Below are positions 3,001-54,394 of a stretch of 61,496 bases of DNA, piece by piece. The stretch's first letter is position 1; every line of letters begins with the position of its first letter. Below the pieces are notes generated by a model. It was not told where the DNA came from and did not search any database. It saw only the letters and a program-made list of their open reading frames with translations. This DNA is from a virus, in the UHGV virus genome UHGV-0350099; one strand, written 5' to 3'. Position numbers and translations under genes: made by a program.

Positions 3001-4026
3001 ACTCTGACTGGAAACCTGCGTTTGTCTGCTGACAATGCCTCCATTGTCTGCGGTAACAATGGGGATATTGGCTTCATCAAAAAACAGGGCTACCCAGGCG
3101 CAATCGTGACTGGTTCGGCAACTAAGTTCATGATTATGCGTAGTAATGCGGCCACGAATATTTCGGCTGCAAATACGCTCACGGAAGTAATGTCCATCCA
3201 GCCAACCTCAAATCGTGCCGACTTCGTAGGTGAGGTGGTTTCGCATTCGGCAAATGCGTTACGCGCGGTTTACGGGAACTACGGCTTCTTTATTCGCAAT
3301 GATGGCGGCACAACTTACTTCCTGCTGACTGCTTCTGGCGATAAATATGGCAGCTGGAACACGTTACGCCCATTGTCCATAAACAACGCAAGCGGTGCAG
3401 TTTCAATGGGGAATGGCTTGAGCGTTGGGGGAGGGGTGAATGTCACGAGCGGAAATATCCGAATCCCGACGTCGAGCACATCGTGGATCGACATGAGGAA
3501 CAATGCCGCTCTGTCTAACAGTTCTGCGGTTGCCACTTCCTCTGCATCGGCCATTATTCGTCAGGAGCACGCCGATCGTCATTATTTTGTTGGTGGTTTA
3601 GGTAACTCTCAGTTCGGATTCTACATGATTAACAAGTCACGAACTGCGAACGGCACGGATGCGAACGCATACCTCCAGAATGATGGCACTTGGGTTTGTG
3701 GCGGTAATGGCAACTTTAATGACGTTTATATCCGCTCTGACCGTCGTAGCAAACGCAATATTCGCAAGATTGAACGGGCGCTCGACAAGCTGGATCGGAT
3801 CGAAGGTGTTCTCTACGAGATTCAGGTCTGTGACCGGTATGAGCAGTCTGGCGGCCTCATCGCTCAGGACGTCCAGAATGTTCAGCCTGAACTGGTAACG
3901 GTTGACCATAACGATCAGTCAGGAGAGCCTCGTCTGCGTCTTAACTACAACGGCGTTATCGGCATGTTGGTCGAGGCTGTCAAAGAGCTGCGCGAGGAAG
4001 TGCGCGAACTGAAGGCAAAAATGTAA
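1..4026 (+). CDS. Tail fibre protein, 5'-partial (frame 1 is open from base 1); C-terminal S74-type intramolecular chaperone domain
   Basis: No stop in frame 1 from 1 to 4026; Ala/Ser-rich N-region with KTSETNAKASE-like motifs; repeated GNAATATKLQTAR blocks; C-terminal SDRRSKRNIRKIE...LVEAVKELREEV resembles autoproteolytic chaperone domain. Confidence 0.8.
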   Translation, partial: ASSASAASTSAGQASASATAAGKSAESAASSASTATTKAGEATEQASAAARSASAAKTSETNAKASETRAESSKTAAASSASSAASSASSASASKDEATRQASAAKSSATTASTKATEAAGSATAAAQSKSTAESAATRAETAAKRAEDIASAVALEDASTTKKGIVQLSSATNSTSETLAATPKAVKAANDNANGRVPSNRKVNGKALTADITLTPKDIGTLNSVTISFSGGAGWFKLATVTMPQASSIVYIALIGGAGYNVGSPHQAGISELVLRAGNGNPKGITGALWKRTAVGLTNFAWINTSGDTYDIYVEIGNYATSVNIHWDCTANATVSIYTSPTYSASKPSSVTDGVVYTMYSTHQKPTPLDIGALPTTGGTVSGPLSVTGGLTGSLNGNASTATKLQTARSIGGVVFDGSANINLPGVNTTGNQNTTGNAATATKLQTARTINGVKFDGSADITLTPANLDVYSKSEIDNKKGMRKYTFSAPANAVSGKWYPIVFRRSGGSTDELASRVVITTYSSAGGYAMNNCEFNGFVMPGGWSDRGSYAAGFFSIYSTAERAIHSIISSVKDDDLCSVFYVEARAFPIKIFAEEGLNVIVPTADYAVGQTTYKWGATDPLSESTNAQIILDFKNGRGYYCSHPFISSLSGNAATATKLQTARTIGGVAFDGSANINLPGVNTAGNQNTTGNAATATKLQTARNINGVKFDGSGDININTLVSRGQVTALSGSTQGTAGIQMYEAYSNNYPTSFGNVLHMKGASAAGEGELLIGWSGTSGAHAPVYVRSRRDTSTANWSGWAQIYTTAHKPTAKDVGAAQAFSASYSTGAGNWTTAEFIAWLKERGAFEVPYWMMKGSWSYADNKIITDTGVGNICLAGAVIEVLGHEGAMTIRVTTPTTTTGGGIASAQFTYINHGSAYAPAWRRDYNTALKPTAADVGALPISGGTMNGVLTLQNVSQPLKTPGGGILANDGNLYINKSGFAGWIDALFLKNSGGTLTGNLRLSADNASIVCGNNGDIGFIKKQGYPGAIVTGSATKFMIMRSNAATNISAANTLTEVMSIQPTSNRADFVGEVVSHSANALRAVYGNYGFFIRNDGGTTYFLLTASGDKYGSWNTLRPLSINNASGAVSMGNGLSVGGGVNVTSGNIRIPTSSTSWIDMRNNAALSNSSAVATSSASAIIRQEHADRHYFVGGLGNSQFGFYMINKSRTANGTDANAYLQNDGTWVCGGNGNFNDVYIRSDRRSKRNIRKIERALDKLDRIEGVLYEIQVCDRYEQSGGLIAQDVQNVQPELVTVDHNDQSGEPRLRLNYNGVIGMLVEAVKELREEVRELKAKM

Positions 4027-4092
4027 TCAAGGTGAATGGTGAGGGGCCACCCTCACCAATTCAGGATATTCACATCAAAAAGGAGATTAGAT

Positions 4093-7518: not shown

Positions 7519-8187
7519 ATGACCAAGATCTTTGTGGTTGGCGGCACAAAGGGCGGGCCTGGCAAATCCACTGTTGCCCAGCAAATTGCCGTTTGCCTGA
7601 AAGTCAAAAAGAAGAAGAAGGTTTATATCACTGATATAGATATTCAGCGCACGACAACGAGCTGGTGTGAAGACCGTCGACAGAACGAAGACCTTGAGCT
7701 GATTCCTTTTGCATACGTTCAGGATGACATCATTAAGCACCTAAAATCGCTTCAGGGTAGAGCTGAGTATGTAGTGGTAGATGCTGGTGGCTTCGACTCC
7801 GAAATTCAGCGACAAGCGATGCTGATGGCTGACGTTATCATTATCCCGCTGCGTCCTAAGCGTCGTGATTTGAAATCTTTACGTGACATCGATCCTATTA
7901 TCGACAATGTTCGCAATGTAAACGATAAAGTGAAGGTCCGCGCGGTCATGAACCAGTGCCCGGCTTTGCCATCACAAGTGTCTCGCATTCTGGCGGCTAA
8001 AGAGATTGTTGAGACGTTTGGCATCGAGTCTGCGCCAGTCAATCTATATAACCGCAACGTCTATGATGATGCGGAAGAGTCTGGTCGTTCTATCTTTGAA
8101 ATGACCGGTAGCGAGCGCGACAAAAAGGCGGAAGCCGAGTTTGAAGAATTTGTAGATTATCTGTTGAGTCTGGAGGAAGAAGAATAA
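7519..8187 (+). CDS. parA: ParA/Soj-family partition ATPase (small, type Ib-like)
   Basis: Deviant Walker A GGTKGGPGKST at N-terminus; 222 aa without N-terminal HTH. Confidence 0.8.
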   Translation: MTKIFVVGGTKGGPGKSTVAQQIAVCLKVKKKKKVYITDIDIQRTTTSWCEDRRQNEDLELIPFAYVQDDIIKHLKSLQGRAEYVVVDAGGFDSEIQRQAMLMADVIIIPLRPKRRDLKSLRDIDPIIDNVRNVNDKVKVRAVMNQCPALPSQVSRILAAKEIVETFGIESAPVNLYNRNVYDDAEESGRSIFEMTGSERDKKAEAEFEEFVDYLLSLEEEE

Positions 8188-16051: not shown

Positions 16052-16263
16052 TCGTATTAAGTAAAAGGGAGAAAGAAACGCTTCATGAAATCAGTAAGTG
16101 GCCGGAGTTCCCTGAGTACTGGAAGCCTAAAACGCGAGCTAAGTTAGAGCGTTTAGGGTTGGTTGCAAACGTTTCTGAAACGTGGTGCTCGGCCAACTAC
16201 CAGTTAACTGATAAAGGGAAAGTATTGCTACAGCAATTAGTAGAATCAGGAGTGTTAAAATGA
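16048..16263 (+). CDS. Hypothetical small protein
   Basis: 71-aa ORF translationally coupled to ligase (overlapping stop/start). Confidence 0.4.
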   Translation: MIVLSKREKETLHEISKWPEFPEYWKPKTRAKLERLGLVANVSETWCSANYQLTDKGKVLLQQLVESGVLK

Positions 16264-16412
16264 TTCCATACATCTCATTAGCTTTTATGGGTGGCTTCCT
16301 TATCGGCTTCGGCATCTGTCGTGATTTAATTAAGCAGGAACTTAAAACCAAAACACTGTGCATCGGAAAGCGTGTGTATCGGGTAGTTCATGAAATAAAG
16401 GTTAGAAAATGA
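16260..16412 (+). CDS. Small membrane protein (50 aa)
   Basis: Unlisted short ORF MIPYISLAFMGGFLIGFGIC..., ATGA-coupled to both neighbours. Confidence 0.3.
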   Translation: MIPYISLAFMGGFLIGFGICRDLIKQELKTKTLCIGKRVYRVVHEIKVRK

Positions 16413-16699: not shown

Positions 16700-16708
16700 A
16701 AACATCAT

Positions 16709-16730
16709 GATAAGTATTTACTTACTTATC
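16709..16730. promoter_or_regulatory. Palindromic intergenic motif GATAAGTATTTACTTACTTATC (dispersed family)
   Basis: Near-perfect palindrome of TAAGTA/TACTTA half-sites; one of about 15 similar intergenic sites. Confidence 0.5.
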
Positions 16731-16895
16731 TTTTATGTATAAGATGACTTTGTTTTCGTTGAGACGCGACTGTTTGAACTTAAATACAAGTGCAAACGAA
16801 GAAGTCTATCTGGCAGTAGCCTAATAAGCCAAACACCAGCGAGGTCAGTTTCCAGCCTCGTTACCGAAATGGGACACACTGAGCGAGTGTGATTG

Positions 16896-17015
16896 CAGAA
16901 CGCAGGAGGGAACATTCATGTTCCCTCCGATGAAGTAACAGAATGGGCGGTTGGTATATTTTCAACTCCATATGACTCCCGGATTCTTAGCCACTGACCG
17001 CCCATTCTGTTACGT
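16896..17015 (+). other. Two strong hairpins in tRNA leader region (candidate small structured RNAs)
   Basis: GGAGGGAACAT-TC-ATGTTCCCTCC (16896-16921) and AACAGAATGGGCGG ... CCGCCCATTCTGTT (16936-17015). Confidence 0.35.
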
Positions 17016-17087
17016 CATTTTGTTCAATTATGTCGTTTATACTGGGTTAAAAAGCGGCGACGTAGCCCGGCTGGTATGGTTAGCCAG

Positions 17088-17271
17088 CACACAACGTTGA
17101 GGCCATTACATTTTTATCAATTCTAAGGTTCTATTCACAGAGATACCGGCGAGCGTTGATATGTAACATGTTGGGCAAACATTCAATCGGAGTAGTGGCC
17201 TCAACGTTGTGAAGACAGGATTGTTGTGTAGGTTTAACCACTGTTGCCATTGGTGCCTGTTTTCACAACAA
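17088..17271 (+). ncRNA. Long hairpins with CACAACG...CGTTGTG stems (structured RNA family, unknown function)
   Basis: CACAACGTTGAGGCCAT (17088-17104) pairs with GTGGCCTCAACGTTGTG (17195-17211); TTGTTGTG/CACAACAA at 17221-17271. Confidence 0.35.
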
Positions 17272-17477
17272 ATGATTCCATACATCACATTGTATAAATT
17301 TCAAAGTAGGTGCTGTCCTCAGAAACATCATCTACTTAAAGATTTTGCCTTCTACTATTGAGCGAAGTCGAAAGCGTCTGGCACTAACGAAAAGTGCAAG
17401 TAGCGGTGCGTTTCCTGGCAGAAACTAAACCGTCGCGATTGGCACTGTTGAGTAATAAATACTGGCAGTGCTGAATT

Positions 17478-17552
17478 GATGGTGTAGCTCAGCGGTAGAG
17501 CAGTTGGCTGTTAACCAACTGGTCGGTGGTTCGAATCCACCCACCATCGCCA
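17478..17552 (+). tRNA. tRNA-Asn (anticodon GUU)
   Basis: Hand-folded cloverleaf: acceptor GATGGTG/CACCATC, D-stem GCTC/GAGC, anticodon loop CTGTTAA, T-loop GGTTCGAATCC, 3' CCA. Confidence 0.8.
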
Positions 17553-17557
17553 ATTTA

Positions 17558-17644
17558 GGGGAGTTAGTCCGTAGGGGCAGCGGGGTAGACTGTAAATCTA
17601 CTGTCATTGCGACTCGGGTGGTTCGACTCCATCACTCCCCACCA
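17558..17644 (+). tRNA. tRNA-Tyr (anticodon GUA), long variable arm
   Basis: Acceptor GGGGAGT/ACTCCCC, anticodon loop CTGTAAA, T-loop GGTTCGACTCC, CCA end; architecture like bacterial tRNA-Tyr. Confidence 0.7.
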
Positions 17645-17648
17645 AATT

Positions 17649-17724
17649 GCCGGTTTAGCTCAGTTGGTAGAGCGCCTGCCTTGTAAGCAGGATGTCAGCG
17701 GTTCGATCCCGTTAACCGGCACCA
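17649..17724 (+). tRNA. tRNA-Thr (anticodon UGU)
   Basis: Acceptor GCCGGTT/AACCGGC, D-stem GCTC/GAGC, anticodon arm CCTGC-CTTGTAA-GCAGG, T-loop GGTTCGATCC, CCA. Confidence 0.75.
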
Positions 17725-17732
17725 ACACAACA

Positions 17733-17944
17733 GGTAAGAGCATTGGGCGAATCGGCGATACTGACCCACAAGCCCGTAAATCGATAGAGTCAGACCAGTG
17801 CTCTTACCGTTGTGAGGAAGTGCAGCTCTTTGAAGCAACCAGAAGATAAGCATCTGGCTTCACAACACAACGATAAGATCATTACGGTTAATCGTCGTTC
17901 ATGTGCACAATGACTGGTCGAAAGGTAGTGATCTTACCGTTGTG
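17733..17944 (+). ncRNA. Three further long hairpins of the same family between tRNAs
   Basis: GGTAAGAGCATTGG/CCAGTGCTCTTACC (17733-17807); GTTGTGAGG/CTTCACAAC (17809-17857); CACAACGATAAGATC/GATCTTACCGTTGTG (17856-17944). Confidence 0.35.
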
Positions 17945-18044
17945 ATGAATGCACAGGCTGATGTGCCGCAACTACAGTAGTGCGCGCTTTGCGGGGCTTG
18001 CTACAACCCTGTGTCGGAGTTCAGCACCGACCATCACAATAGCT

Positions 18045-18131
18045 GGAGAGTAGGGAGCATGGTGCTCAAGCGGTCTTGAAATCCGTCCCATTGTGCAAAC
18101 GATGATGGTTCGATTCCATTACTCTCCGCCA
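18045..18131 (+). tRNA. tRNA-Ser(UGA)-like, long variable arm, possibly degenerate
   Basis: Acceptor GGAGAGT/ACTCTCC + CCA, anticodon loop CTTGAAA, T-loop GGTTCGATTCC; anticodon stem has a T-T mismatch and D-arm is atypical. Confidence 0.45.
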
Positions 18132-18133
18132 GA

Positions 18134-18211
18134 CACAGCGTTGAGCGGTTTGGCCTTTTAATCACCCAGATTAAGACTCCGCTAACATAAACCAGACCGC
18201 TCAACGCTGTG
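18134..18211 (+). ncRNA. 20-bp inverted repeat hairpin following tRNA-Ser-like
   Basis: CACAGCGTTGAGCGGTTTGG ... CCAGACCGCTCAACGCTGTG, same CAACG/CGTTG stem signature as upstream hairpins. Confidence 0.35.
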
Positions 18212-18287
18212 ATAGACAATTACGGCAGACGTTCTTAACCATAGCTTGCTAACATCCTAGCAACACTTTTTTTCAGCGCAAAATTCA

Positions 18288-18309
18288 AAGGGGCTTCGGC
18301 CCCTTTTTT
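18288..18309 (+). terminator. Rho-independent terminator after tRNA cluster
   Basis: GGGGC-TTCG-GCCCC followed by TTTTTT. Confidence 0.6.
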
Positions 18310-18352
18310 GCAACTGAAAGAGTCAAGTCTACGAACTTTGTAGGAAGAAATA

Positions 18353-18703
18353 ATGACCAGCAAAGATAACACACCACTAAAAGTCACCCCTGAACACATT
18401 GAACAACTCATTCAAAGTGAACATTATTTCACTGCATATGATGCCAGCCACGGGGATAACTTCATCTCCGTTTACAATTCAAAAACAGATATCGACAAAT
18501 GTCATGAGTCGTTAAAACTCTTAACGTTCTGCGTTATGGTTCTCAAAAATGGATATACCGTAACGGGAAAATCTGCGTGCGTAAGACCAGAAATCTTCAA
18601 CTTTGATGTTGGTCGCGAGTACGCTCGAAAAGATGCTATCGATCAAATCTGGCCCCTGGAAGGCTATCTCCTGAAGCAAAAGTGGCATGAGGCAAAGCAA
18701 TGA
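18353..18703 (+). CDS. Hypothetical protein
   Basis: 116-aa ORF; no motif recognised. Confidence 0.45.
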   Translation: MTSKDNTPLKVTPEHIEQLIQSEHYFTAYDASHGDNFISVYNSKTDIDKCHESLKLLTFCVMVLKNGYTVTGKSACVRPEIFNFDVGREYARKDAIDQIWPLEGYLLKQKWHEAKQ

Positions 18704-18945
18704 CGATCACTATCTACGGACGAGATAACTGCTCATACTGCAAACGTGCGGTCGAGCTGGCGAAGCAACTAAAGGGACATGGCTACGGTGATTATGAGTA
18801 CATCGACATCACCACTGCCGGTATCGACAAGGAAAAACTAAGTGAAATTGTTGGTAAACCGGTAGAGACTATCCCCCAAGTGCTGATCGATGGCCAACCG
18901 ATTGGCGGATACACAGAACTGGCTGCATACGTCAGCACCCTCTGA
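18700..18945 (+). CDS. Glutaredoxin/NrdH-like redoxin
   Basis: 81 aa; N-terminal TIYGRDNCSYCKRA with CxxC active site. Confidence 0.65.
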   Translation: MTITIYGRDNCSYCKRAVELAKQLKGHGYGDYEYIDITTAGIDKEKLSEIVGKPVETIPQVLIDGQPIGGYTELAAYVSTL

Positions 18946-18949
18946 TTTT

Positions 18950-18976
18950 AACGGCTCACAGGAGCCGTTTTTATTC
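18950..18976 (+). terminator. Rho-independent terminator
   Basis: ACGGCTC-ACAG-GAGCCGT followed by TTTTTATT. Confidence 0.55.
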
Positions 18977-19155
18977 CCACCAAACTCACTCCCGTTTCCC
19001 TTAAAATTCAAAAAACAACGTCAAAATGATTCCATACCTACTATGTATGGAATCATTGCTGAAAATGAGTTACTTTTACTCTTGATCCTATAAGAATCTA
19101 TGCCTAATATACTGTTTACTTATACAGTACATCGGCGTAACTCGGTGATTGTCAT

Positions 19156-20259
19156 ATGAAAAATAGCTTTGACAGAGCACGCGCTGCGGAGAACACCTCA
19201 AAAGAGGCGATTGAGTATCTCGAAAGAGCATCTCAAATGCAGGCCGTTATGATCTCGCAGGTTAGCAATGACATGAGATTCTCGGACGCATTCATGTTAT
19301 TCACTCGCTTATCTCTGCTGATAACCAGACGTCGGCCAGAGATCGCTGTTCATTGTATTTTGATACATGTTTTTCCGCACATTGCCGATGTAAAAGTAAG
19401 TGATATTAATAGGTTCATGGTGAACCAACTGGTCAACCCACTAATACTGGATGGCAAAATTGTTATGGGCCGCCGCGTTTTCTCTCTGATGAAGCAGTTC
19501 CTTAGCTGGTGCGCCTTCCAGGGGATGATAGACGTGTCACCGTTAAACGATATGTCACTTAACAAAGTTGCCGGTGGCGCAAAGCCCACGCCCCGCGAGC
19601 GGAAGCTGACTGACGCAGAGGTATGGGTGTTCTGGAATATATGGGACTACTTCAATGTGTGCGCTGGTACAAAATGGGCGGCCAGACTGTGTCTTGTATC
19701 AGCAAGACGACCTGACGAAGTACTGCGGGCTAAAAAAAGTGAGTTCAATCTTAAGCGTGGAGTTTGGAATCAAGGCAAGAGAAACAAGTCAGCACGTGAG
19801 CATTCGCTGCCTTTAAGCACATTAATGCGCACATGCATTGAAGAGTTGTTCGAATACGGTAAAGACAGCCAGTGGCTCGTGCCTTCGAATAAAAAAATCG
19901 GGAAAGACCTTCCTATGTCTAAAGTGGCAATAGCCCAGGCATTACGTCGTATTCTGGAACGACCAGAACTGATGGAGCTTGAGCCATTTACACCCCGAGA
20001 TTTGCGCCGTACTGCGCGTAGTTACTTCCCAGCATTAGGCATAAGCCAGGAGGTATCACGCAAAATCATGAACCACAGTCTTGAGGGGATAGATCGGGTC
20101 TACGACCGGCACGATTATATGGACGAGATGCGAGACGCCTTAGAAAGTTTCTCGACGTACATCGCATCAATCGTAGAGCAACCGGATTTAGACGAAATTG
20201 ACCACAAATTTAAGGGAGATCGTCTATCAACAGAGCTTATTCGTGTAAATTTTTCATAG
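19156..20259 (+). CDS. int: Tyrosine recombinase / phage integrase family protein
   Basis: 367 aa; C-terminal catalytic-domain pattern ARRPDEV...HSLPL...RDLRRTARS...HSLEGIDRVYDRHDY consistent with R-H-R-Y integrase fold. Confidence 0.7.
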   Translation: MKNSFDRARAAENTSKEAIEYLERASQMQAVMISQVSNDMRFSDAFMLFTRLSLLITRRRPEIAVHCILIHVFPHIADVKVSDINRFMVNQLVNPLILDGKIVMGRRVFSLMKQFLSWCAFQGMIDVSPLNDMSLNKVAGGAKPTPRERKLTDAEVWVFWNIWDYFNVCAGTKWAARLCLVSARRPDEVLRAKKSEFNLKRGVWNQGKRNKSAREHSLPLSTLMRTCIEELFEYGKDSQWLVPSNKKIGKDLPMSKVAIAQALRRILERPELMELEPFTPRDLRRTARSYFPALGISQEVSRKIMNHSLEGIDRVYDRHDYMDEMRDALESFSTYIASIVEQPDLDEIDHKFKGDRLSTELIRVNFS

Positions 20260-20640
20260 AGACTTTATGGCCTCAACAACCTTTTGTGATGCGCCTTTCT
20301 CTTTACCGAATCGCTCGTTATATGCAGCAAGAACCTGTTTTTCGTCCTCGTTAAGAGGAGCAGTGCCTTCTTTGTATAAAAATGCTGCGAGTTCGGGTTG
20401 GCGTTCTTCCAGCACCATCATCATAAGACGACTTGGCTCAATACCCAGCGCCAGCGCCAACGGACGAACCTTATCGATAGGCAAAGGAATTTTGCCACTT
20501 TTAATTAAAGAAAGGTTGTTGGCATTTTTGTAACCAATAAGTCTGGCTATTTGGGCCTGACTCATAGGTGAGGATTCAATCAACCCTGCGATAAAAGCAG
20601 CGTAGCGACTTTCTATAAATTCAATCTTGTTATCAGACAT
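20254..20640 (-). CDS. XRE-family HTH transcriptional regulator (candidate phage repressor)
   Basis: 128 aa; N-terminal HTH MSQAQIARLIGYKNANNLSLIKSGK; convergent with integrase; palindrome GGTAAGTGCTTACC in its upstream region. Confidence 0.6.
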   Translation of the reverse strand: MSDNKIEFIESRYAAFIAGLIESSPMSQAQIARLIGYKNANNLSLIKSGKIPLPIDKVRPLALALGIEPSRLMMMVLEERQPELAAFLYKEGTAPLNEDEKQVLAAYNERFGKEKGASQKVVEAIKSL

Positions 20641-20671
20641 GGTTACAACCTTTGCGCGTTCAATTCTCTCT

Positions 20672-20685
20672 GGTAAGTGCTTACC
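20672..20685. promoter_or_regulatory. Perfect palindrome GGTAAGTGCTTACC in repressor upstream region (candidate operator)
   Basis: Same core as dispersed GGTAAGT..ACTTA motifs found before many replication genes. Confidence 0.45.
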
Positions 20686-20891
20686 GATATTACATCAAAG
20701 GTTAGGGTTGTAAAGCTATTATCATTTTTTTCGATAGGCACTTAAAAGACCGGTTAAAGGCCATTGCACGGAGAAAAATTAGCCCAAAATAGGTAAGAAA
20801 ATCAACTTGCATATGATATGAATGTATTCAGTATTGATACAAATTTTAGTAGTATTCCTTACCATAGTATAAGTTAGAATGGATTGATTGA

Positions 20892-21104
20892 ATGAAAACC
20901 ACTATTTCCAGCCTAATCGCTCTTGAGATCGGACACGTACAGAAATTAGCTGATGAGTGTGTAGCTGACATCCTCACCGATCTACCGAATGAGCAGATTC
21001 AGGTTGGTGTGAATGACACAACTGGATTTATATTCGAACTTAACAACAAACGCTTCACGCTTCTCAATACCGGCTCCGGGTCTTTAGCCGTCAGAATCTG
21101 TTAA
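20892..21104 (+). CDS. Hypothetical small protein divergent from repressor
   Basis: 70-aa ORF on opposite strand across a 250-bp AT-rich intergenic region. Confidence 0.35.
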   Translation: MKTTISSLIALEIGHVQKLADECVADILTDLPNEQIQVGVNDTTGFIFELNNKRFTLLNTGSGSLAVRIC

Positions 21105-21202
21105 CCCCTCTTCTCCCTGCGCGAATGGCTTAGTTCCCTGTTCGCGCAGTGCTACATTAAACACACTAGTAAATAATTTGTTTTCATAACAAAGGATTAG
21201 CC

Positions 21203-23311
21203 ATGTCTAAAAAACGTTCCATCAAAGAGGTTCAGGACTTCCGTGACAGTGTAAAACGAGTAGTCGCTCTCCTTTCAGGTAAAAACATCCCTGTTGCAGA
21301 ACGAGGGGACGACGCTTATGTACGCTATAACGATGATGGAGAGCCAATTCTCGTAAACATCCCATCAATCCCGGATAACGCAACACCGGCATTGATGAAT
21401 GCTGTGCGCGGATTTCTCGATCATGAGGTTGCTCACATTTTGTTTACCGATATTCGTGTGTCCAACAAAATGAGAGAAAAAGGACGCGTTCCTTCCTGGT
21501 CGCTATGGAATGCCTTAGAAGACGTGTTCATCGAGCGAAAAATGGGTCAGGTCTTTAACGGAACAAGACGTAATCTGATGGCAACTCAGCGCCTTATAAT
21601 CGAAAAAGTCTTTAAACCAAAGGCTTCAGAGGCTATTGCTTATTGTGGCAAAGATCAGCGCGCGCTTTTTCTAAACTTCTTTCTCTGTCCGGTTGTAAGA
21701 GCCTGGGATGGCCAAGCACCGTTCGTAGATTTCATGGATGAATATTGGCCTGTCATTGAGAAACCAATTTCATTATTAAAAGAACATGGTATCGATGTGG
21801 CCGTGCGTAACATGTCTTGCACCGAGGATTGTGTAAAGGTGGCTGCGACCATAGCTAAGATCCTCAAAGACACTGAAAGTGAAAGCAAAGGTAAGGAGTC
21901 AGCTCCGGGAAAAACTTCCGATCCTTCAGACGCTGACCAGACGGATGCCTCTGGAGAAAACAATGAAGACAACGAAGATCATGAGACACCCTCATCGTTA
22001 GATAATCACAAATCTATTAAATCAGAGTCACATAGTAAGCACAAACATGATAATAACGACAGTGATGATTCAGATAATCCTGAATCATCAGAAACAATAT
22101 TCGATGATACAGAAAATGATAAAGCGGTATCAGATTCTGATGCTTCTGATAACGCGGCGTCAGAATCATTAACCGCTGACCACGAAAAAAGAAAAACGAC
22201 AGAAGACGGCTCTTCAGACATTCCAACTCCGTCAAAAATGAGTCTGGAAGAGGCTTTAGAGGAGTTGGATAGCATGGAAGATGAAGTCGGAGGCATGACA
22301 GAAGATGCGCTATCCGAAACGATTAAAAGCGAGTTAACAGAAAGCTCGAAAAGCGAATACAGGCCATACAATCGCTCATACGACTTCATCGGCTCGATTG
22401 ATCAGGCAGAAGCCCATATCAAACGGCTTATTAAAACATTCTCCGATATTGATTTAGGTGGATATCCAATCAGCCGTTATCGCATCGTTCCTGAAGGCAA
22501 CCAACTCTTCGACAAATATATTGAAAAGCACCTTTCGTCAGGTGTTTCGTCGACGCTGGCAAAAGACCTGGAACGTGCAATAGCAAGCAGAAACAGAGTT
22601 CAGTTTATACCTGGCCAGCGTCGGGGGCGCATTCATGGTTCAAGTATCTACAGATTAACAATGAATGATGATCGCGTGTTTCGTAAAAAAGAAGAATCTA
22701 AAGCCGTTAACGCCTGTGTTCAACAAGTGATTGATTTATCGGGTTCAATGAGTGGCGAAACGATAAAACTAGCTCTTGCAAGTGCATATACCATCGCCGA
22801 TGCACTTGATCGAATAAATGTTCCCAACATTATCACCGGCTTCACTACATTTGGCAGTCATATGGCAGCAGGAGAACTTAAGGCTATCAAATATGAGTTC
22901 TCTCGCTTTGAATCTTTAATGCTACCTATCATCAAAAATTGGAATGAAAAAGCAAATTCTCGCGAAGTTCGCTCACGTATGGGGTGCGTAGGCTACACAT
23001 TCCCACTTCTTAATAACGTGGATGGTGAAAGCATAGCCAGCCTTGCATCGTTATTTTCCGGTCGCTTGGAGGACAGGAAGATCATGCTTGTTCTGAGCGA
23101 TGGCGCGCCGTGGGCTGTTGGGAGAGGTTTTGACGCCCATTTGCGTTCGGTTACGAAGCAAATTGAAACGCAGACTGACATTGATTTGATGGCAATTGGC
23201 ATCATGACTGATGCACCGGAGAGATTTTACGCAAATCATGCCCTGGTAACTAGTGTTGATAGTCTTGGTTCATCTGTAGTTACTGAACTATCTCGTATCA
23301 TTTTGAAGTAA
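21203..23311 (+). CDS. vWA-domain protein, CobT-like, with long acidic low-complexity linker
   Basis: 702 aa; MIDAS-like DLSGSMSG motif near C-terminal domain; Asp/Ser/Glu-rich linker around 21900-22300. Confidence 0.65.
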   Translation: MSKKRSIKEVQDFRDSVKRVVALLSGKNIPVAERGDDAYVRYNDDGEPILVNIPSIPDNATPALMNAVRGFLDHEVAHILFTDIRVSNKMREKGRVPSWSLWNALEDVFIERKMGQVFNGTRRNLMATQRLIIEKVFKPKASEAIAYCGKDQRALFLNFFLCPVVRAWDGQAPFVDFMDEYWPVIEKPISLLKEHGIDVAVRNMSCTEDCVKVAATIAKILKDTESESKGKESAPGKTSDPSDADQTDASGENNEDNEDHETPSSLDNHKSIKSESHSKHKHDNNDSDDSDNPESSETIFDDTENDKAVSDSDASDNAASESLTADHEKRKTTEDGSSDIPTPSKMSLEEALEELDSMEDEVGGMTEDALSETIKSELTESSKSEYRPYNRSYDFIGSIDQAEAHIKRLIKTFSDIDLGGYPISRYRIVPEGNQLFDKYIEKHLSSGVSSTLAKDLERAIASRNRVQFIPGQRRGRIHGSSIYRLTMNDDRVFRKKEESKAVNACVQQVIDLSGSMSGETIKLALASAYTIADALDRINVPNIITGFTTFGSHMAAGELKAIKYEFSRFESLMLPIIKNWNEKANSREVRSRMGCVGYTFPLLNNVDGESIASLASLFSGRLEDRKIMLVLSDGAPWAVGRGFDAHLRSVTKQIETQTDIDLMAIGIMTDAPERFYANHALVTSVDSLGSSVVTELSRIILK

Positions 23312-23327
23312 TTAAAACAGCCTTAAT

Positions 23328-23349
23328 GATAAGTAACTACTTACCATAG
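23328..23349. promoter_or_regulatory. Palindromic intergenic motif GATAAGTAACTACTTACCATAG
   Basis: Member of dispersed TAAGTA/TACTTA motif family. Confidence 0.45.
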
Positions 23350-23406
23350 TTAATGGTATATTTATATAAGAACTTGAACGCTCATTAGAGAACAAAGGAA
23401 AAGCGC

Positions 23407-24642
23407 ATGACTACTACTGCACTGCAAAATGATAAAAATCCTTCTGATTACCTTGTTTGCAAGTGGTGCGGCAAATCATTTCACTATTTTAAGTCCCATG
23501 TAGCCAATGGTAATTGCGAGGGCATTCCTGAGTCAGTAAAAGATGCCGATCCTGACACCGTACTGAAAATGTACACAACGCAGTTTCCAGATGAACCAAC
23601 GCTATCGAAAAAGGCACTTGATGCAATTCAAGCTAAACGTGCCGAGCAAAAAAGCGAAATGGCGAAATCTTCTGGCTTGACCAGTAGCCCAGGCTACACA
23701 GGCACAGTTGAGTACAAGACAGATCTGGTCGCAGCTCACGAACTGCTAAACGTAACGGTGGAAGAACTCGGAACAAAACGTGGGACGCCGCTCATGGTTA
23801 GCGTCAACGTCAATACGCCGTATCCAGAGTTCGTTCCAGAAGTGAAGAAGGGCTACGTATATGGCGACTTCGAACTGATCAAAGATATTTTCATGATGCT
23901 TGAACTTGGCATACCTGGCTATTTGTGGGGTCATGCAGGAACAGGCAAATCGTCATTGCCTACACAGCTATGTGCTTTGCTCAATCGTCCGTTGATCCGT
24001 GCCCAACATACAGCATCAATGGAAGAGGCACATGTTACGGGGCAAATTCTGGCGCGTGATGGCTCTACGTATTTCGAGCCTGGCTTGCTTGCGCTCGCAA
24101 TGAAGCATGGCTGGGTTTACCTCGCGGATGAATACGACTTTGCGTTTCCACAAATTCTTGGCGTGTATCAGCCAGTGCTGGAAGGTGAGGCGTTGGTCAT
24201 CAAAGAGGCAACTCCAGAATGGCGTCGCATTACTCCGCATGAACGGTTTGCTTTCATTGGCACTGGCAACACAAACGGTTCTGGTGATGAAACCGGCTTG
24301 TACCAGGGTACAAACATCCAGAACGCCGCGAACTTTTCACGTTTTGGCATCGTTTCGAATGTGAAATACATGAGCAAAGAGGCAGAGATCAACATGTTGA
24401 TAAATGCCGGCATCGTGGATGAGTACGCTGAAAAGATGGTTAAGTTTGCCGGTATCGTTCGCGATGGATATGAAGAACACCTTATCAGCCAGCCAATTGG
24501 GCCTCGTGAGCTTTTGTTGTCGGCCAAGATTGGAATGATGCGAGGCGACTTTGTGGCAGGTATTGAGCGTTCTTTCATTAACAAACTCCCTTCAGCTTCT
24601 GCGCAAGCGGCTCGTGAAGTTGTTCAAAAAATATTTGGTTAA
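23407..24642 (+). CDS. AAA+ ATPase, MoxR/CobS-like
   Basis: Walker A GHAGTGKSSL, Walker B-like VYLADEYDF; adjacent to vWA partner. Confidence 0.7.
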   Translation: MTTTALQNDKNPSDYLVCKWCGKSFHYFKSHVANGNCEGIPESVKDADPDTVLKMYTTQFPDEPTLSKKALDAIQAKRAEQKSEMAKSSGLTSSPGYTGTVEYKTDLVAAHELLNVTVEELGTKRGTPLMVSVNVNTPYPEFVPEVKKGYVYGDFELIKDIFMMLELGIPGYLWGHAGTGKSSLPTQLCALLNRPLIRAQHTASMEEAHVTGQILARDGSTYFEPGLLALAMKHGWVYLADEYDFAFPQILGVYQPVLEGEALVIKEATPEWRRITPHERFAFIGTGNTNGSGDETGLYQGTNIQNAANFSRFGIVSNVKYMSKEAEINMLINAGIVDEYAEKMVKFAGIVRDGYEEHLISQPIGPRELLLSAKIGMMRGDFVAGIERSFINKLPSASAQAAREVVQKIFG

Positions 24643-24822: not shown

Positions 24823-27800
24823 ATGAAGGCACTGATGGTTCGAACTGACTTCTCACTTGGGGAGTCGGCTCTAAAAGCAGAAAACGCGGTGAAGATTGCC
24901 AGAGAAGCTGGCTACACCGCTGTAATTTCAGCAGATAGCATGAATATTGCGAGCGTTATTCCACTACAACGTGCCGCTGGTGACGACATGGCGGTTATTT
25001 GTGGTGTGAAACTAAACATTGTTGATGATCCCACATACGAGCACCGGGCTAAACTTGCTAAAGAATCTATGAGATGTATGGAATCATTAGAGCGGGGACG
25101 TAACTACTCGTTTACCGCTCTAATTAAAAATGAGCAAGGATATCGCGACATCTGCGAACTAATGACGGTGGCCAACACACGAGAACAGTTCTACTTTGTA
25201 CCGCGTCTCTCGCTCGAACAGTTGGTTTCTACATATGCCAAAGGCAACATCATCCTGCTTACTTCCGACATCGGTAGCGTGTTCCAACGCAACGATTTTG
25301 CAAAAATCATAAGCACACTGATTACAGCGGGTGGAAAAGACAACTTCTATAGTGTGGTTTATCCGCACCCTACCCCATTCTACGACCAGATTAACGTCCG
25401 AGCGATGAAAGTAGCCAGCGCACTGAAAATAGAGCCAGTAGCGTTCTATCCCGCTTATTACGAATCGATCGACGATGCAGACATTAAAGACATTGCGCAC
25501 ATGGTTACGAACAACATAAAAATCGACCAGCCGCATCGTCTGCGTATCCCCCACCAGCGAGATAACGCCATCAATGGTCGTCGCCATCTCCTTGAGGCGC
25601 TTAAAGCCTTCTCCGTTCGCATGGATGTGCCGGTAACAGCTGCAATGGCCTCAACAACGCAGGACTCCATTATCGATGCCTGCACATGGCGCTGGCATGA
25701 ATTGCCACCAGCACTGCCCAAGATGGCAGACGACGAACCTGCAACGCTGATGAAACTGGCTGTTGCAGGGCTGCGTAAACGTCTTACCACAAAAGAGTTT
25801 GGATACACACCACCTGCTTCTGAGAACAGGGTTTATGTTGAGCGGCTAAAGTACGAAATGAACACGCTGACTCGCCTGGGATTTTGTGGTTACTTCCTGA
25901 TGGTACGCGATCTGATGAATCACAGCCGTGAAACTGGCATTCCTGTCGGGCCTGGTCGTGGTTCCTCTGCCGGTTCTCTGGTGGCGTGGTGCATAGGCAT
26001 AACCAACGTCGACCCAATCCGTCACGGTCTTCTGTTTGAGCGTTTCATCAACCCTGAGCGTCTCGACTTGCCGGATGCGGACTTGGACTTCAGCCAGGCA
26101 CGTCGCCATGAGGTGATCGAGTATCTGAATGAACGCTACGGCGAAGATTACGTTGCAGGCATTCCGAACTTCACCTATCTGGGCGCGGCATCTGCACTAC
26201 GTGACACCGCTCGTATTTATGGTGTGGAGTCCGCAGATATGGCGGTATCAAAAGAACTGAAGAACGTCGAGGATGATAGCCTTCCATTGGAAGAGCTGCG
26301 CGAACAACTGGCAAGTCTCGACAAATACGCAACAAAATATCCTGATGCATTCAATGCAGCCTGCAAGTTACAAAGCCTTATGCGTGGCTTTGGTAGACAT
26401 GCGGCAGGGATGATTGTAGCAGGTGTTCCTCTGACAGAACGTACACCGGTTGAGCGCCGTGGTGACGCGCGTTGTATCGCATTTGACAAGCGTTACTGCG
26501 AGGCTATGGGCCTAATTAAGCTGGACGTGCTTGGCCTGGCAACTCTCGATTTGCTCGATAGTGCAAAACGCTACATAAAAGAGAACACAGGTGAAGATAT
26601 CAATCTTGATGCCATTTCTCTTGAAGATCGCAAGGTGCTGGATGGTTTTGCTGCAGGGTATACACAGGGCGTATTCCAGCTGGAGTCCGGCCCCATGCGC
26701 AAGCTGCTTAAAGATCTAGGCGGTGGCATTGAGCCAATGAGCTTTAAAACCGTTGTCGCCACGACCGCACTCTTCCGACCTGGCCCGATCCAATCCGGCA
26801 TGTTGGACGACTATGTTTCTGTCGCCAAAGGCTTTATGACGCCGGAATCATTACACCCCGTTCTTGATGAACTTACCGCGGAAACAAATGGCGTGATTCT
26901 CTATCAGGAACAGACGATGAACGCGACTCGATTGCTTGCCGGCTTCACAATGGCTGAAGCTGACGGTGTGCGTTCCGCAATCGGTAAGAAGAACATGGAA
27001 AAAATGAAGAGCATGGGCGAGAAGTTCATCGTTCAGGCTCAAGCTGGCTGGATAGACGTTGAGCTGGAAGATGGCACTACACAGCGCATTCACCGTGCGG
27101 AACATTTTAAATGCGAAGACGGAACTCTGAAAACTGTCGAAGAGGCACTTGAGCACGGCGCAAAACTACCTATAAACGCAGTACGCGTTACAGCGTCACA
27201 TCCAGGGCTATCAGAGATGAAAGCGAAGGAGATCTGGACCGCATTCGAAAAAAATGGTGCCTACCAGTTCAATAAATCACACTCCGTTGCTTATTCTTTA
27301 ATCAGTTATCAGTCTATGTGGCTAAAGACGCACTACCCTGCTGAGTTCTTCGCAGCTGCGCTCACCATTCTGGGCGAGGATAAGCATCAGGGGCTGGTGA
27401 AGGATGCGCTGACCTATGGCATTCGCGTATTGCCACCAGACGTTAATGTGTCATCTAACCGAATTGAGATCCGCACACTCGAAGACGGCAGTCAGGCACT
27501 GTATGCGCCATTCTCTGCTGTGAAAGGCTGTTCTGAAAATGGTTGTCAGGCAATTATGCGTGCGCGTGAGAAAGTTGGTGGCAAATTCGAGTCAGTGGCA
27601 CAATTCGATGAAGCGGTCGAGAAGCGTGCATGTAACAGTCGTGTACGCGAGTCGCTTCATAAAGTAGGGGCTTTTGCGTCAATTGAGCCAGGCAGTCTGC
27701 CAGCAACTGATCCTGAACGACTGCGCGACCAGGCTGAGCTGATGGGCAATCTCATCATTGACGCTGTTAAAGCATCACGTCCGTTCGAAATGAATCCTAA

Positions 27801-33143: not shown

Positions 33144-35483
33144 ATGGCAAAAGGAAAATCCGCACTGGCACTTGCTCTGAAAAAGAAAATCGGTAGCAAC
33201 GACGAAATTCAGAAAGTAACTCATTGGATTGATACAGGCTTTCCACCGTTAAACAAAGCTATTTCTGGTCGTTACGATGGCGGCTTCCCATGTGGTCGTA
33301 TCGTCGAAGTATTCGGTCCACCAAGCGCGGGGAAATGTGTTACCGCAGACACCATGCTGCTGACGGAGCGTGGAATGGTAACAGTGAAAGAGTTGTTTGA
33401 GATTGAAGGGTACAAAGCGACATGCACTACTCGCGATGTAGAGCATAACGTTGGACTCATCAATGAAAATGGCGTGATAGAGAAGACCTCACACCTGACA
33501 TGGAACAACCGTCGCAAATTCAAGCGTATTAAGCTGGCATCAGGCGGTTATATCGAGGCTACGTTCCGTCACCCAATCCGTGTGGTTGACGACTTAGGTA
33601 ATGTCGTCTGGCGACATGCTGAAAAAATCAGTGTAGGCGACACGATTCCTTCAATGGTTGGCACACATCAATTCGGCGATCAGCACCTGGATGCCAATAT
33701 CGCAAAACTGATGGGCTATTTAATTGCTGACGGATACGTGGCCTCTGAAAATTCAGTGAATTTTTCTAACACAGATCCTTTCATCAAGGATGAGTACTAC
33801 CGCCTCATTTCGCTGGTATCAGACAAGATGCCAGTTGCGAGAAAACATAACGGCTCGGAAGACCATGTGCTGTTTAGCAAAGAGGTGCGTTCGCTGCTTT
33901 TTAAAGAATATGGTCTGGAGTATGAGAAAGCTGCTGGCAAGCAGGTTCCGTTGAGTGTGCGTCGCGCCAATAGCGAGGCTCAAATTGCATTCCTTCGCGG
34001 CTACTTTGAGCTGGAATGCCACGTCAATGATGGTCGCTGCATTGAGGTTGTGAGCGCGAGTGGGCTGCTGCTACAGCAAATTCGCCTCATGCTCCTGAAT
34101 CTGGGGATTACGTCAACTATCTCTGAAAAACACGTCGCGGGTTATGAAAATACATATTACCGGCTGTCATTCAGTGGCTCTAATTACGACCTTTTTCTGT
34201 CAACGATTGGTTTCGAATCTCCGGCACGTTTATCAGTGGCAACCAAACGGGACATTGGTTTTGACCGCACTTACTCAGGCTATGTTCCGCACATCAGCGG
34301 CTTAGTGAAATCACTCTACGAGTCGCTCACCAAGACCACCCGTGAAGACTACGCTCTGGTAGACCACGTTATTGGCCGCGGCGATCGTGTCGGAATAGAC
34401 AAACTGCGAGAAATCTATGTCTCCTTCATTGGCAGAAAGAATCGTTTTAACGAGCATCTGTTTGCACAACTGGCAGCGGTAATTGGCTCTAACTTGTTCT
34501 ACGACGAAGTCGTGGCTATTGAGGAAGGTGAAGCACCAACGTTCGACGTAGCGATGCCGGAAACACACTCTTTCTGGTCTAACGGGATTATCAGCCACAA
34601 CACATTCCTTGCAACAGCAGCGATGATCTCCGCTCAAAAACAAGATGGTCTGGCGGTATTCCTCGATCATGAAAACAGTTTTGACGTTGGCCTGGCTGTA
34701 GCCAATGGCCTGAACGCAGATGAGGATGACGGTCAGTGGGTATACAAGCAGCCAGATACCTTCGAAGACTCTGTAGAGTTGATCGGCACAATACTTAAAT
34801 TGGTTCGTGATGAAGAGCTTATCCCCGAATCAGCACCTATCTGTATCGTGGCTGACTCTCTTGCGTCTATGGTTCCGAACTCCAAAGCCGAGAAGTTCGA
34901 AAAGATGGCTGAAGGCACAGCCAAAGACAAAGATCAGCTAAACATGAACGACAATACGGCACTGGCTCGTGCGACGAGTGCGAACTTCCCTACTCTGGCT
35001 TTGTGGGCACGCAAATACAACGCCTGCATCATCTTCTTGAATCAGGTTCGCACAAAAATCGGTGTAATGTTTGGCGACCCTACTACGTCGCCAGGTGGAG
35101 ATTCACCGAAGTTTTACGCTTCTGTGCGTATCCGTCTTGGTGCATCGGTGATGAAGGATGGTAAAGAGAAGATCGGCCAGGACGTAGGCGCAGAATGCAT
35201 CAAAAACAAAGTTGCACCACCGTATGGCAAATGCACCTGGAAATTCTACTTCGATCCTACTCGTGGCCTCGACGTTATCGAATCGCTCGTCGAGTACATG
35301 CTGGAAGAAGGATACCTGCCAAAGAACGCCAGCGGGCGAGTTGAAATTGGTGACAAGAAATACACCAAATCGCAGATCGTCGAGATGTATCGGGAGAAGC
35401 CACTGGCTGAAATCATTGCGGCTTTGCAGGCAATCGACGACCGAAGAGCAAAAGACAACCCCACCGAGTCAGTAGAAGAGTAA
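33144..35483 (+). CDS. recA: RecA-like recombinase interrupted by an intein
   Basis: Exteins: GRIVEVFGPPSAGK|...|TFLATAAM, AVFLDHENSFD, CIVADSLASMVP, IFLNQVRTKIGVMFGDPTTSPGGDSPKFYASVRIRLG match RecA core motifs. Confidence 0.85.
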   Translation: MAKGKSALALALKKKIGSNDEIQKVTHWIDTGFPPLNKAISGRYDGGFPCGRIVEVFGPPSAGKCVTADTMLLTERGMVTVKELFEIEGYKATCTTRDVEHNVGLINENGVIEKTSHLTWNNRRKFKRIKLASGGYIEATFRHPIRVVDDLGNVVWRHAEKISVGDTIPSMVGTHQFGDQHLDANIAKLMGYLIADGYVASENSVNFSNTDPFIKDEYYRLISLVSDKMPVARKHNGSEDHVLFSKEVRSLLFKEYGLEYEKAAGKQVPLSVRRANSEAQIAFLRGYFELECHVNDGRCIEVVSASGLLLQQIRLMLLNLGITSTISEKHVAGYENTYYRLSFSGSNYDLFLSTIGFESPARLSVATKRDIGFDRTYSGYVPHISGLVKSLYESLTKTTREDYALVDHVIGRGDRVGIDKLREIYVSFIGRKNRFNEHLFAQLAAVIGSNLFYDEVVAIEEGEAPTFDVAMPETHSFWSNGIISHNTFLATAAMISAQKQDGLAVFLDHENSFDVGLAVANGLNADEDDGQWVYKQPDTFEDSVELIGTILKLVRDEELIPESAPICIVADSLASMVPNSKAEKFEKMAEGTAKDKDQLNMNDNTALARATSANFPTLALWARKYNACIIFLNQVRTKIGVMFGDPTTSPGGDSPKFYASVRIRLGASVMKDGKEKIGQDVGAECIKNKVAPPYGKCTWKFYFDPTRGLDVIESLVEYMLEEGYLPKNASGRVEIGDKKYTKSQIVEMYREKPLAEIIAALQAIDDRRAKDNPTESVEE
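33336..34601 (+). mobile_element. Intein (422 aa) with LAGLIDADG homing endonuclease, inserted in the RecA P-loop
   Basis: Begins with Cys right after GPPSAGK, ends HN followed by Thr; LAGLIDADG-like LMGYLIADGYV and FLRGYFELECHV. Confidence 0.8.
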
Positions 35484-54389: not shown

Positions 54390-54394
54390 AACAA

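Follow-up and report, generated by a model that had tools for sequence, protein, structure and literature searches.

Plasmid multimers are resolved by ResD at rfsF of the F plasmid and by the host XerCD recombinases at cer and psi, the Xer systems using two recombinases, 11-6-11 sites and accessory sequences. The spacer of loxP is 8 bp long, while a 7-bp spacer is typical of the lambda/P4-type integrases; sfx sites of the Rci shufflon of IncI plasmids have one conserved arm and a 7-bp spacer. Guerin et al. reportedly described LexA control of the integron integrase gene intI in 2009. In phage P1, Cre has a role in multimer resolution and cyclisation (PMC7969092). Pfeifer et al. listed tyrosine recombinases among the persistent genes of the SSU5 supergroup of phage-plasmids and assigned them no site or role (PMC7969092), and reviews describe phage-plasmids as typically lacking integrases. 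Here we analyse a 61,496-nucleotide stretch of the virus genome UHGV-0350099 (hereafter the window, meaning this stretch at its full length), which carries a tyrosine recombinase gene, int, preceded by a 33-bp palindrome. The two, we think, probably make up a self-contained Cre/loxP-like module that resolves multimers of a circular plasmid prophage and may also cyclise its genome.

The comparison with Cre/loxP of P1 is close in design. In both, the recombinase gene adjoins its own site on a low-copy circular plasmid prophage, and the site has perfect inverted arms of 13 bp each, separated by a short asymmetric spacer, with no apparent accessory arm sites and no arm-binding domain in the recombinase. 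The two systems differ in that Int is not a sequence relative of Cre, its site has a spacer of 7 rather than 8 bp, its promoter bears a LexA box, and extra single arms lie kilobases away; Int, moreover, is known here from sequence and model.

The window comes from an SSU5-supergroup phage-plasmid of E. coli and is about 97% identical to phage Cyrano (pLF82), which in a DNA comparison covers 93% of region 17000-23500 at 97% identity; E. coli plasmid prophages of about 108 kb other than Cyrano match the same region at similar identity. Cyrano is a published SSU5-like phage-plasmid that is kept at about 5.5 copies per cell, makes siphovirus particles and is induced 39-fold by ciprofloxacin (PMC9928086).

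A palindromic site upstream of int changes with the recombinase

The candidate recombination site (Table 1) is a perfect palindrome of two 13-bp inverted arms, interrupted by an asymmetric spacer. Perfect palindromes of the form 13-N(6-8)-13 are expected about 0.003 times per window, and two more exist in the window besides the one at int. Because of these two, the palindrome by itself proves little, and it is the comparative evidence that decides. Both additional palindromes have the 13-7-13 form (GTAAGGCTCACTA-CAGTGGA-TAGTGAGCCTTAC at 38656-38688, beside the Rep3 initiator gene, and AAAGCCTACTTTA-AAAAGTT-TAAAGTAGGCTTT at 54394-54426) and may be terminators or operators. No direct arm-type repeats were found flanking the core of the int palindrome. 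Literature searches with the arm sequences returned unrelated matches and no relevant mention; the 33-bp site is previously undescribed, the module itself being of an ordinary kind.

In all 39 palindrome-bearing loci, the site lay 43-98 bp upstream of a homologue of Int with 57-99% identity, although many of these loci were found through the arm search and therefore show linkage, not conservation, leaving eight lineages, found by Int or DNA homology alone, as the unbiased set. All eight have a 13-7-13 site before int (imperfect in Photorhabdus), and the same architecture was seen 30-98 bp before the Int homologue in every related locus examined.

The arms fall into two classes that follow the identity of the recombinase. 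Where Int is at least 57% identical, the arm is TGATTCCATAC, as in Citrobacter (AATGATTCCATAC-CTATAAA-GTATGGAATCATT; Int 86%), Klebsiella pJN2-26 (TATGATTCCATAC-TTGGTAG-GTATGGAATCATT; Int 82%) and K. michiganensis (TGTGATTCCATAC-TATATAA-GTATGGAATCACA; Int 59%). Where identity drops to 44-49%, the arm becomes TGACTCCAGAC, a class named in Xenorhabdus (TGTGACTCCAGAC-GTAGTTA-GTCTGGAGTCACA; Int 47%), Pantoea vagans (TGTGACTCCAGAC-TTATTAG-GTCTGGAGTCATA; Int 48%), Rahnella (TGTGACTCCAGAC-TTAATAG-GTCTGGAGTCACA; Int 49%) and Providencia (ATGACTCCAGAC-TACATAG-GTCTGGAGTCAT; Int 44%); Photorhabdus (Int 47%) has an imperfect version of this class of site. Thus, as Int diverges, the arm differs at the same two positions in both halves, the change being identical in the two arms. 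Such symmetric change would be the signature of a dimer-binding site evolving with its protein.

The spacer behaves differently. While class-I arms are essentially invariant, at least ten different 7-bp spacers accompany them, and three different spacers occur among Int proteins that are at least 97.8% identical. Free variation of this kind is expected for a site that recombines only with its own copies, and not for one that has to match a host attB. In two cases, PhiR41_1 (locus positions 4001-4033) and Buttiauxella (2114-2146), the spacer is reverse-complemented relative to sister lineages while both flanks are unflipped. Since conservative site-specific recombination cannot produce this arrangement, we tentatively attribute it to a hairpin or template-switch event; that the flip is tolerated suggests that the site needs no set orientation toward its flanks.

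The pair of int and palindrome also occurs apart from the genes that surround it in the window. Chimaeribacter loci have both without a nearby XRE, 70-aa or glutaredoxin (grx) homologue, and in both a 221-kb Rahnella contig and the 507-kb record CP028350 of Pantoea vagans the genes around a solitary int and its site are non-phage ones. In a 33.8-kb Photorhabdus plasmid, int and site are placed between parAB and a Rep3 initiator, inside a toxin-antitoxin-parAB-rep cluster. On this Photorhabdus asymbiotica plasmid (CP177137), TacT/TacA, parAB, int, a convergent helix-turn-helix (HTH) gene, a small divergent gene and the Rep3 initiator are contiguous, and the whole looks like the maintenance core of the phage-plasmids minus the phage genes.

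Int has the catalytic residues and two-domain fold of lambda-type recombinases

The integrase-family assignment made in the initial annotation is borne out. Int matches Pfam Phage_integrase (PF00589) above threshold (E 4.7e-10; 39.9 bits against a cut-off of 27.1) and PHROG 1 'integrase' at 1e-46. Single-sequence PDB searches with Int, as with the XRE protein, gave no match, but a profile built from 46 Int homologues matched lambda integrase in the PDB (E 1.4e-12), together with SAM-like core-binding domains of P4-type integrases; Cre was not among the matches of this profile search. The alignment, which also answers a proposed check for the catalytic Tyr, Arg and His residues, equates R185, K211, R284, H307 and Y316 of Int with R212, K235, R311, H333 and Y342 of lambda Int. 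The His-I position (lambda H308) is Arg281 throughout the Int subfamily; His-I is the least conserved catalytic position of tyrosine recombinases. R185, R284 and Y316 are invariant in the 46 homologues, down to 23% identity, and all but one of the 252 E. coli records have an intact int.

An AlphaFold 2 model of Int (predicted local distance difference test score, pLDDT, 86.7) gave as its top Foldseek matches the lambda Int-DNA complexes, aligning with the core-binding and catalytic domains of lambda Int (1z1b; E 3e-7, probability 1.00), whereas Cre structures ranked 36th or lower at E 0.015 or worse. Residues 1-40 are modelled as short helices, not as a beta arm-binding domain, and neither the Pfam search nor the model revealed an arm-binding N-terminal domain (PF13356 or PF09003). 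The P4-type PF13356 domain is carried by distant homologues and is absent from the close Int family. Judged from sequence and model, Int looks catalytically active, and by descent it looks like a lambda/P4-type enzyme pared down to the two domains used by simple recombinases. What it shares with that group is the best sequence and structure matches, PF13356 in its distant homologues and a 7-bp crossover region; what sets it apart is the perfectly symmetric core and the fact that no arm-binding N-terminal domain, arm-type repeats, integrated copies or attB were found.

These observations bear on a reading of the palindrome as no more than an operator, hairpin or terminator, with Int either an inactive relic or aimed at some other target. 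Long hairpins are not rare in the window, as its two other perfect 13-7-13 palindromes illustrate, the His-I position is Arg, and no recombination products have been seen. Against this, the stem of the palindrome is AT-rich with no T-run after it, and grx has its own terminator at 18950-18969; the palindrome accompanies int into unrelated replicons, its arms change symmetrically between Int classes, and both the invariance of the three catalytic residues and the intactness of the gene speak for a working enzyme. We consider this reading very improbable.

The module is confined to plasmids in E. coli

Among 5,426 complete E. coli genomes, int was found in 254 copies in 252 genomes, and all 254 were on plasmids. 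The same holds for the 207 copies of the site, and the search for lone copies of it in the chromosomes of this set found none. In a search of one genome from each of 185,579 species, the exact arm pair occurred in seven places, every one of them beside an int homologue; this search asks for exact arm pairs, and an imperfect attB would escape it. With no chromosomal int or site in E. coli and arm pairs elsewhere only beside int, integration was rejected. Two outsize int-bearing plasmids of 198 and 214 kb have a normal neighbourhood at the site, one of them with insertion sequence (IS) elements in cobS, and Int-mediated cointegrates were rejected on this basis. In the phage-plasmids, int is bordered by grx or cargo genes and by the XRE gene, with no excisionase-like gene seen beside it; a weak HTH_17 match was seen only in a neighbour of int in Chimaeribacter.

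A true integrase permitting an alternative chromosomal state, with the palindrome as the core of attP, was one of the two functions first proposed for this gene, the other being a Cre- or XerD-like dimer-resolution enzyme. The former could draw on the sequence and fold of Int, which are closest to lambda/P4-type integrases, on the 7-bp spacer typical of that group, on SOS control, which would suit an enzyme of excision and integration, and on the occurrence of some Int homologues on contigs of 0.2-0.9 Mb that may or may not be plasmids. It is opposed by the absence of chromosomal copies among the 254 in E. coli and of any lone site in E. coli chromosomes or in the exact-pair search of 185,579 species, by perfectly symmetric arms and a free spacer that are incompatible with a conserved attB, by a recombinase without an arm-binding domain and a core without arm-type repeats, by the failure to see an excisionase-like gene beside int in the phage-plasmids, and by the two large plasmids that are normal at the site, one with its IS in cobS. 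It is the resolution enzyme, then, that is favoured, while an alternative integrated state appears decidedly unlikely. The initial annotation had also set int next to the tRNA cluster and pointed to a junction inside a tRNA gene. The adjacency did not hold up and the junction gained no support: the cluster ends 1,024 bp before int, a gp49/66-family gene and grx intervene, and the tRNAs are complete.

The annotation of a complete 107-kb relative lists no site-specific recombinase besides Int. This plasmid also encodes RecA and a RuvC-like protein, and therefore multimers should form.

A LexA box overlaps the putative int promoter

The putative int promoter was read by eye and scores 8/12, under the scan threshold; its -35 and -10 hexamers are kept in Yersinia, Kluyvera, Klebsiella and Citrobacter relatives. 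The LexA (SOS) box that overlaps it, TACTGTTTACTTATACAGTA, is the only CTGT-N8-ACAG in the window. It is kept upstream of int in the phage-plasmids of E. coli, Yersinia, Kluyvera and Klebsiella, degenerate in Citrobacter and Buttiauxella, and absent in Xenorhabdus, Pantoea and Chimaeribacter. Int therefore resembles the integron integrase IntI in being a tyrosine recombinase with a LexA box at its promoter, a shared regulatory trait and not a mark of membership, since the int locus has no attC-bounded cassette array or divergent cassette promoter and its site is a simple double-stranded palindrome.

In the Cyrano lysogen, int mRNA stands at about five times the local background, roughly half the level of the repressor. 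It rises from log2 5.6 in lysogeny broth (LB) to 10.3 after 6 h in macrophages, a niche of the lysogen that has been described as SOS-inducing (PMC9928086), and repressor mRNA climbs in parallel. A terminator scan found no strong terminator between int and the XRE gene. A role of the int promoter in prophage induction is conceivable, because the repressor lacks an S24 domain and int reads into the XRE gene without a strong terminator.

A second strong LexA box, TACTGTATGGATAAACAGTA, is present in the relative plasmid NZ_JBSTQP010000003, at about position 4925 of the locus. It lies between the gene for a 158-aa 'DNA-binding protein' with no Pfam match and that for HumD (UmuD-like, S24), making this a candidate SOS-controlled antirepressor locus.

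In light of this wiring, the module might have a regulatory role, in which SOS-induced transcription of int interferes with, or is antisense to, the repressor gene, and/or arm-bound Int serves as a roadblock or looping factor, coupling DNA damage to the lysis-lysogeny switch. In keeping with it, the window has no other LexA box, and a complete relative has just one other strong one; the 3'-to-3' overlap of int and repressor, without a strong terminator, is kept even with an unrelated 101-aa HTH repressor; ciprofloxacin induces Cyrano 39-fold, yet the XRE protein has no S24 domain; and single arms of the site are conserved as half-sites. However, int and repressor mRNA rise together in macrophages while phage production stays blocked, the second LexA box beside the 158-aa protein and humD offers a conventional antirepressor route, and int with its palindrome occurs without the LexA box, the XRE gene or the single arms in Pantoea, Rahnella, Chimaeribacter and Xenorhabdus. 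Since the module exists without these features, regulation cannot be its ancestral function. As the principal function we hold it to be unlikely; it can coexist with resolution.

Isolated single arms lie kilobases from the palindrome

The exact 13-mer arm has three extra copies in the window, each followed by ATC and none with a partner arm (Table 1). In relatives from Klebsiella and Citrobacter, with about 73% DNA identity, each of the three corresponding places still has the 12-nt core of the arm unchanged; a Xenorhabdus relative has no single arms, and no arm copies with one or two mismatches were found in a complete relative. Three isolated arms followed by ATC resemble the one-arm sfx sites of Rci, but there is no invertible segment here, and inversion would disrupt dnaE. 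Junctions predicted for inversion between the arms were absent from 219 E. coli plasmids (0/219) and those predicted for deletion from 210 (0/210), and shufflon-like rearrangement was accordingly rejected. So was a reading of the single arms as attL and attR, since the ATC extensions do not have the relative polarity required and are no hybrids of the palindrome spacer, and so was a common encoded peptide (MIPY...), as the reading frames end differently. An apparent covariation of single arms and palindrome in K. michiganensis (the TG variant) was downgraded after arm position 2 proved to vary elsewhere too. The single arms are probably extra binding sites.

Taken further, Int might also occupy the three half-sites, at the start of a small open reading frame (ORF), before the tRNAs and in dnaE, and, together with a LexA-controlled transcript antisense to the repressor, turn the module into a DNA-damage sensor and genome-wide regulator. 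We regard this as a speculative extension with a low chance of being right. To our knowledge, such SOS wiring of a lysis-lysogeny switch through a recombinase module has not been described.

A variable cargo slot borders the palindrome

The slot between the 3' end of grx and the palindrome (about 18926-19024) is empty in the window and holds differing cargo in relatives: CYRAN_43, expressed 723 times above background, in Cyrano; a hypothetical gene and a YafO-family toxin in pLR-60_2 and pRM9131-1; and more than 4 kb of foreign genes in PhiR41_1. In 38 of 207 E. coli site matches the aligned part fails to span most of the query, and in the listed examples it starts at the left edge of the palindrome.

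This variability raises the question of integron-like capture or exchange of cargo by Int at the palindrome, a reading to which the partial matches beginning at the palindrome edge and a LexA control reminiscent of integron integrases lend some colour. However, no second full or half site was found to bound any cargo. The left joint lies inside the 3' end of grx, each variant still encoding a diverged grx C-terminus, and to the right homology resumes before the arm and not in the spacer. Because of the joint inside grx and the diverged C-terminus kept by each variant, we attribute the variation to mosaic homologous exchange beside a conserved element, and not to Int-mediated capture, which was rejected and seems to us extremely improbable. 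An arm-like sequence with 9 of 13 matches at the left boundary of the cargo is peculiar to the window.

The neighbouring putative immunity region

The rest of the gene layout agrees with what had first been described. The three ORFs of int, the XRE-type gene and the 70-aa protein have exactly the coordinates and lengths given before (ORF list); the end-to-end arrangement of int and the XRE gene is a convergent overlap in which the 3' ends share 6 bp (TCATAG); the AT-rich spacer of some 250 bp measures 251 bp and has a GC content of 33.9%, the window as a whole having 46.1%; and a ParA-type ATPase and a Rep3-type initiator are present on the same element. The order int, convergent HTH gene, divergent gene of about 70 aa, cobT, cobS, dnaE was found in seven genera (Escherichia, Yersinia, Kluyvera, Citrobacter, Klebsiella, Xenorhabdus and Providencia) and is therefore a conserved layout rather than a chance arrangement. 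Together with the published status of the XRE gene as a putative repressor, this upholds the switch-like layout suggested at the outset.

Table 1 Features of the int locus and of related functions in the window
Feature	Coordinates	Strand	Details
ParA-type ATPase	7519-8187
Single arm 1	16259-16278	+	AATGATTCCATAC-ATCTCAT; overlaps start codon of a 50-aa ORF (16260-16412)
Single arm 2	17271-17290	+	AATGATTCCATAC-ATCACAT; non-coding stretch before tRNA cluster
Four tRNAs (Asn, Tyr, Thr, Ser)	17478-18131
Candidate recombination site	19025-19057		AATGATTCCATAC-CTACTAT-GTATGGAATCATT; perfect 13-7-13 palindrome, 98 bp upstream of int
Left arm of site	19025-19037		AATGATTCCATAC
Spacer of site	19038-19044		CTACTAT
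Inverted arm of site	19045-19057		GTATGGAATCATT
Inferred int promoter	19082-19110	+	-35 TTGATC (19082-19087), 17-nt spacer, -10 TAATAT (19105-19110)
LexA (SOS) box	19110-19129		TACTGTTTACTTATACAGTA; overlaps -10, 27 bp before int ATG
int, tyrosine recombinase	19156-20259	+	367 aa
XRE-type HTH gene	20254-20640	-	128 aa
Divergent control region	20641-20891		xre promoter, dyad and conserved block before 70-aa gene
Dyad	20672-20685		GGTAAGTGCTTACC; part of imperfect inverted repeat flanking xre promoter
Predicted xre promoter	20714-20687	-	TTTACA-16-TAATAT, sigma-70-like
Small divergent ORF	20892-21104	+	70 aa
Single arm 3	25069-25088 (13-mer at 25076)	-	AATGATTCCATAC-ATCTCAT; inside dnaE
RecA ORF	33144-35483		779 aa, intein-interrupted; Pfam Intein_splicing, LAGLIDADG_3, RecA
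Rep3-type initiator	38709-39764	-

The 128-aa XRE protein has a weak HTH_19 match and falls in PHROG 8 'transcriptional regulator' (6.6e-12); Pfam found no Peptidase_S24 domain in it. Its gene corresponds to CYRAN_45, a 'putative repressor' expressed at ten times the local background in the lysogen in LB (PMC9928086), and we likewise take it to encode a putative lysogeny repressor. In Yersinia, Citrobacter and Klebsiella, two blocks are kept, one with the xre promoter and dyad and the other ahead of the 70-aa gene, the XRE proteins of these genera being only 57-66% identical to that of the window. The 70-aa protein belongs to PHROG 2627, of unknown function, and gave no match in Pfam, NCBIfam or the PDB; its AlphaFold 2 model, from a shallow alignment, is of low confidence (pLDDT 53.6). 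The gene is the first of the rightward cobT-cobS-dnaE string, and is the equivalent of Cro by position only. The arrangement thus resembles CI/Cro, in that an AT-rich region, in which a promoter and a dyad are conserved, separates the gene of an HTH repressor expressed in lysogeny from the small gene, facing it, that opens the lytic-direction string, and differs from it in that the XRE protein has no domain for RecA-dependent cleavage and the 70-aa protein no detectable HTH or family.

In Klebsiella michiganensis-type phage-plasmids, a gene for an unrelated 101-aa HTH_3 protein and a 600-bp gap stand where the window has the 128-aa XRE gene and the 70-aa gene; the convergent, overlapping layout of int and repressor and the LexA box are still present. 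Between the 70-aa gene and cobT of the window, a hairpin with a 9-bp stem (CTGCGCGAA...TTCGCGCAG) and no T-run occupies 21118-21150. RNA-seq of Cyrano in macrophages shows the 70-aa gene up about 90-fold and cobT only about 6-fold, and because of this difference across the hairpin attenuation is suggested there.

Two further features of the window deserve mention. An ORF-free stretch of about 780 bp before the tRNAs (16700-17478) contains several long inverted repeats, and its only Rfam match is weak and tmRNA-like (16773-16875, E 0.04); the stretch may hold tRNA remnants or an unannotated RNA. The RecA of the window is split by an intein with a LAGLIDADG homing-endonuclease domain, while that of a close relative plasmid is intein-free, at 357 aa.

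Discussion

In the mechanism that we propose, two Int monomers would bind the two identical 13-bp arms, two sites would synapse, and strands would be exchanged across the 7-bp spacer. Partners would be sister copies of the same site, such that head-to-tail multimers, which would arise by homologous recombination on an element with its own RecA, become monomers to be segregated by the ParA system. Int would be kept low in the lysogen by its LexA-repressed promoter and boosted during SOS. The XRE and 70-aa immunity region would be a separate function, interlocked with int through 3'-overlapping convergent transcription. We infer recombination at the site, and its role in resolution, because the arms are symmetric, the spacer drifts, there is no arm-binding domain and there are no arm repeats, and the module is found on non-phage replicons. 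In its proposed task, turning multimers of a partition-dependent low-copy plasmid into monomers, and in having the recombinase gene by its site among maintenance genes, the system is akin to ResD and XerCD, the likeness to ResD being one of description. Xer recombination, with its pair of recombinases, 11-6-11 sites and accessory sequences, is built differently from the Int system.

A terminally redundant genome entering the cell could be made circular by the same reaction, and the module might act mainly in this way, at infection, by recombining two copies of the site in the injected DNA. Circularising the infecting genome is the other role of Cre; such a function would follow the same simple-site logic as resolution, and the element, as Cyrano demonstrates, is a functional siphovirus. 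On the circular map, however, the site lies about 40 kb (shorter arc) from the terminase genes, the module is kept on non-phage replicons and on the 33.8-kb plasmid, which has no virion genes in the stretch examined, and Int is LexA-repressed, with LexA present in a freshly infected cell. That infection is the main setting in which the module works is thus unlikely.

Several points weigh against resolution as the purpose of the module. A canonical LexA box is unexpected for a housekeeping resolvase, and a simple Cre-like model assigns no function to the three conserved single arms kilobases away. The His-I position is occupied by Arg281, the binding of Int to the arms is deduced from linkage only, and many of the loci that display this linkage were, as noted above, recovered by the arms themselves. 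No recombination products (dimer, hybrid site or deletion between sites) were observed, and E. coli XerCD could in principle resolve the plasmid multimers, so that Int is not proven necessary. Even so, we still favour a Cre/loxP-like resolution module as the probable explanation. The analysis contributes a hitherto undescribed lox-like site whose sequence varies along with its recombinase, speaks against integration, and brings out an unusual combination of LexA control and orphan half-sites.

SSU5-supergroup phage-plasmids are common in Enterobacterales and carry toxins, morons and resistance genes. As a simple recombinase/site family with at least two arm specificities and many spacers, the module could serve as a source of orthogonal genome-engineering tools. 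Judging from its LexA box and half-sites, DNA damage may be linked to both plasmid maintenance and prophage induction. A lox-like site gives these elements a concrete, testable maintenance function, and would explain the persistence of an 'integrase' in elements for which no integrated copy was seen here.

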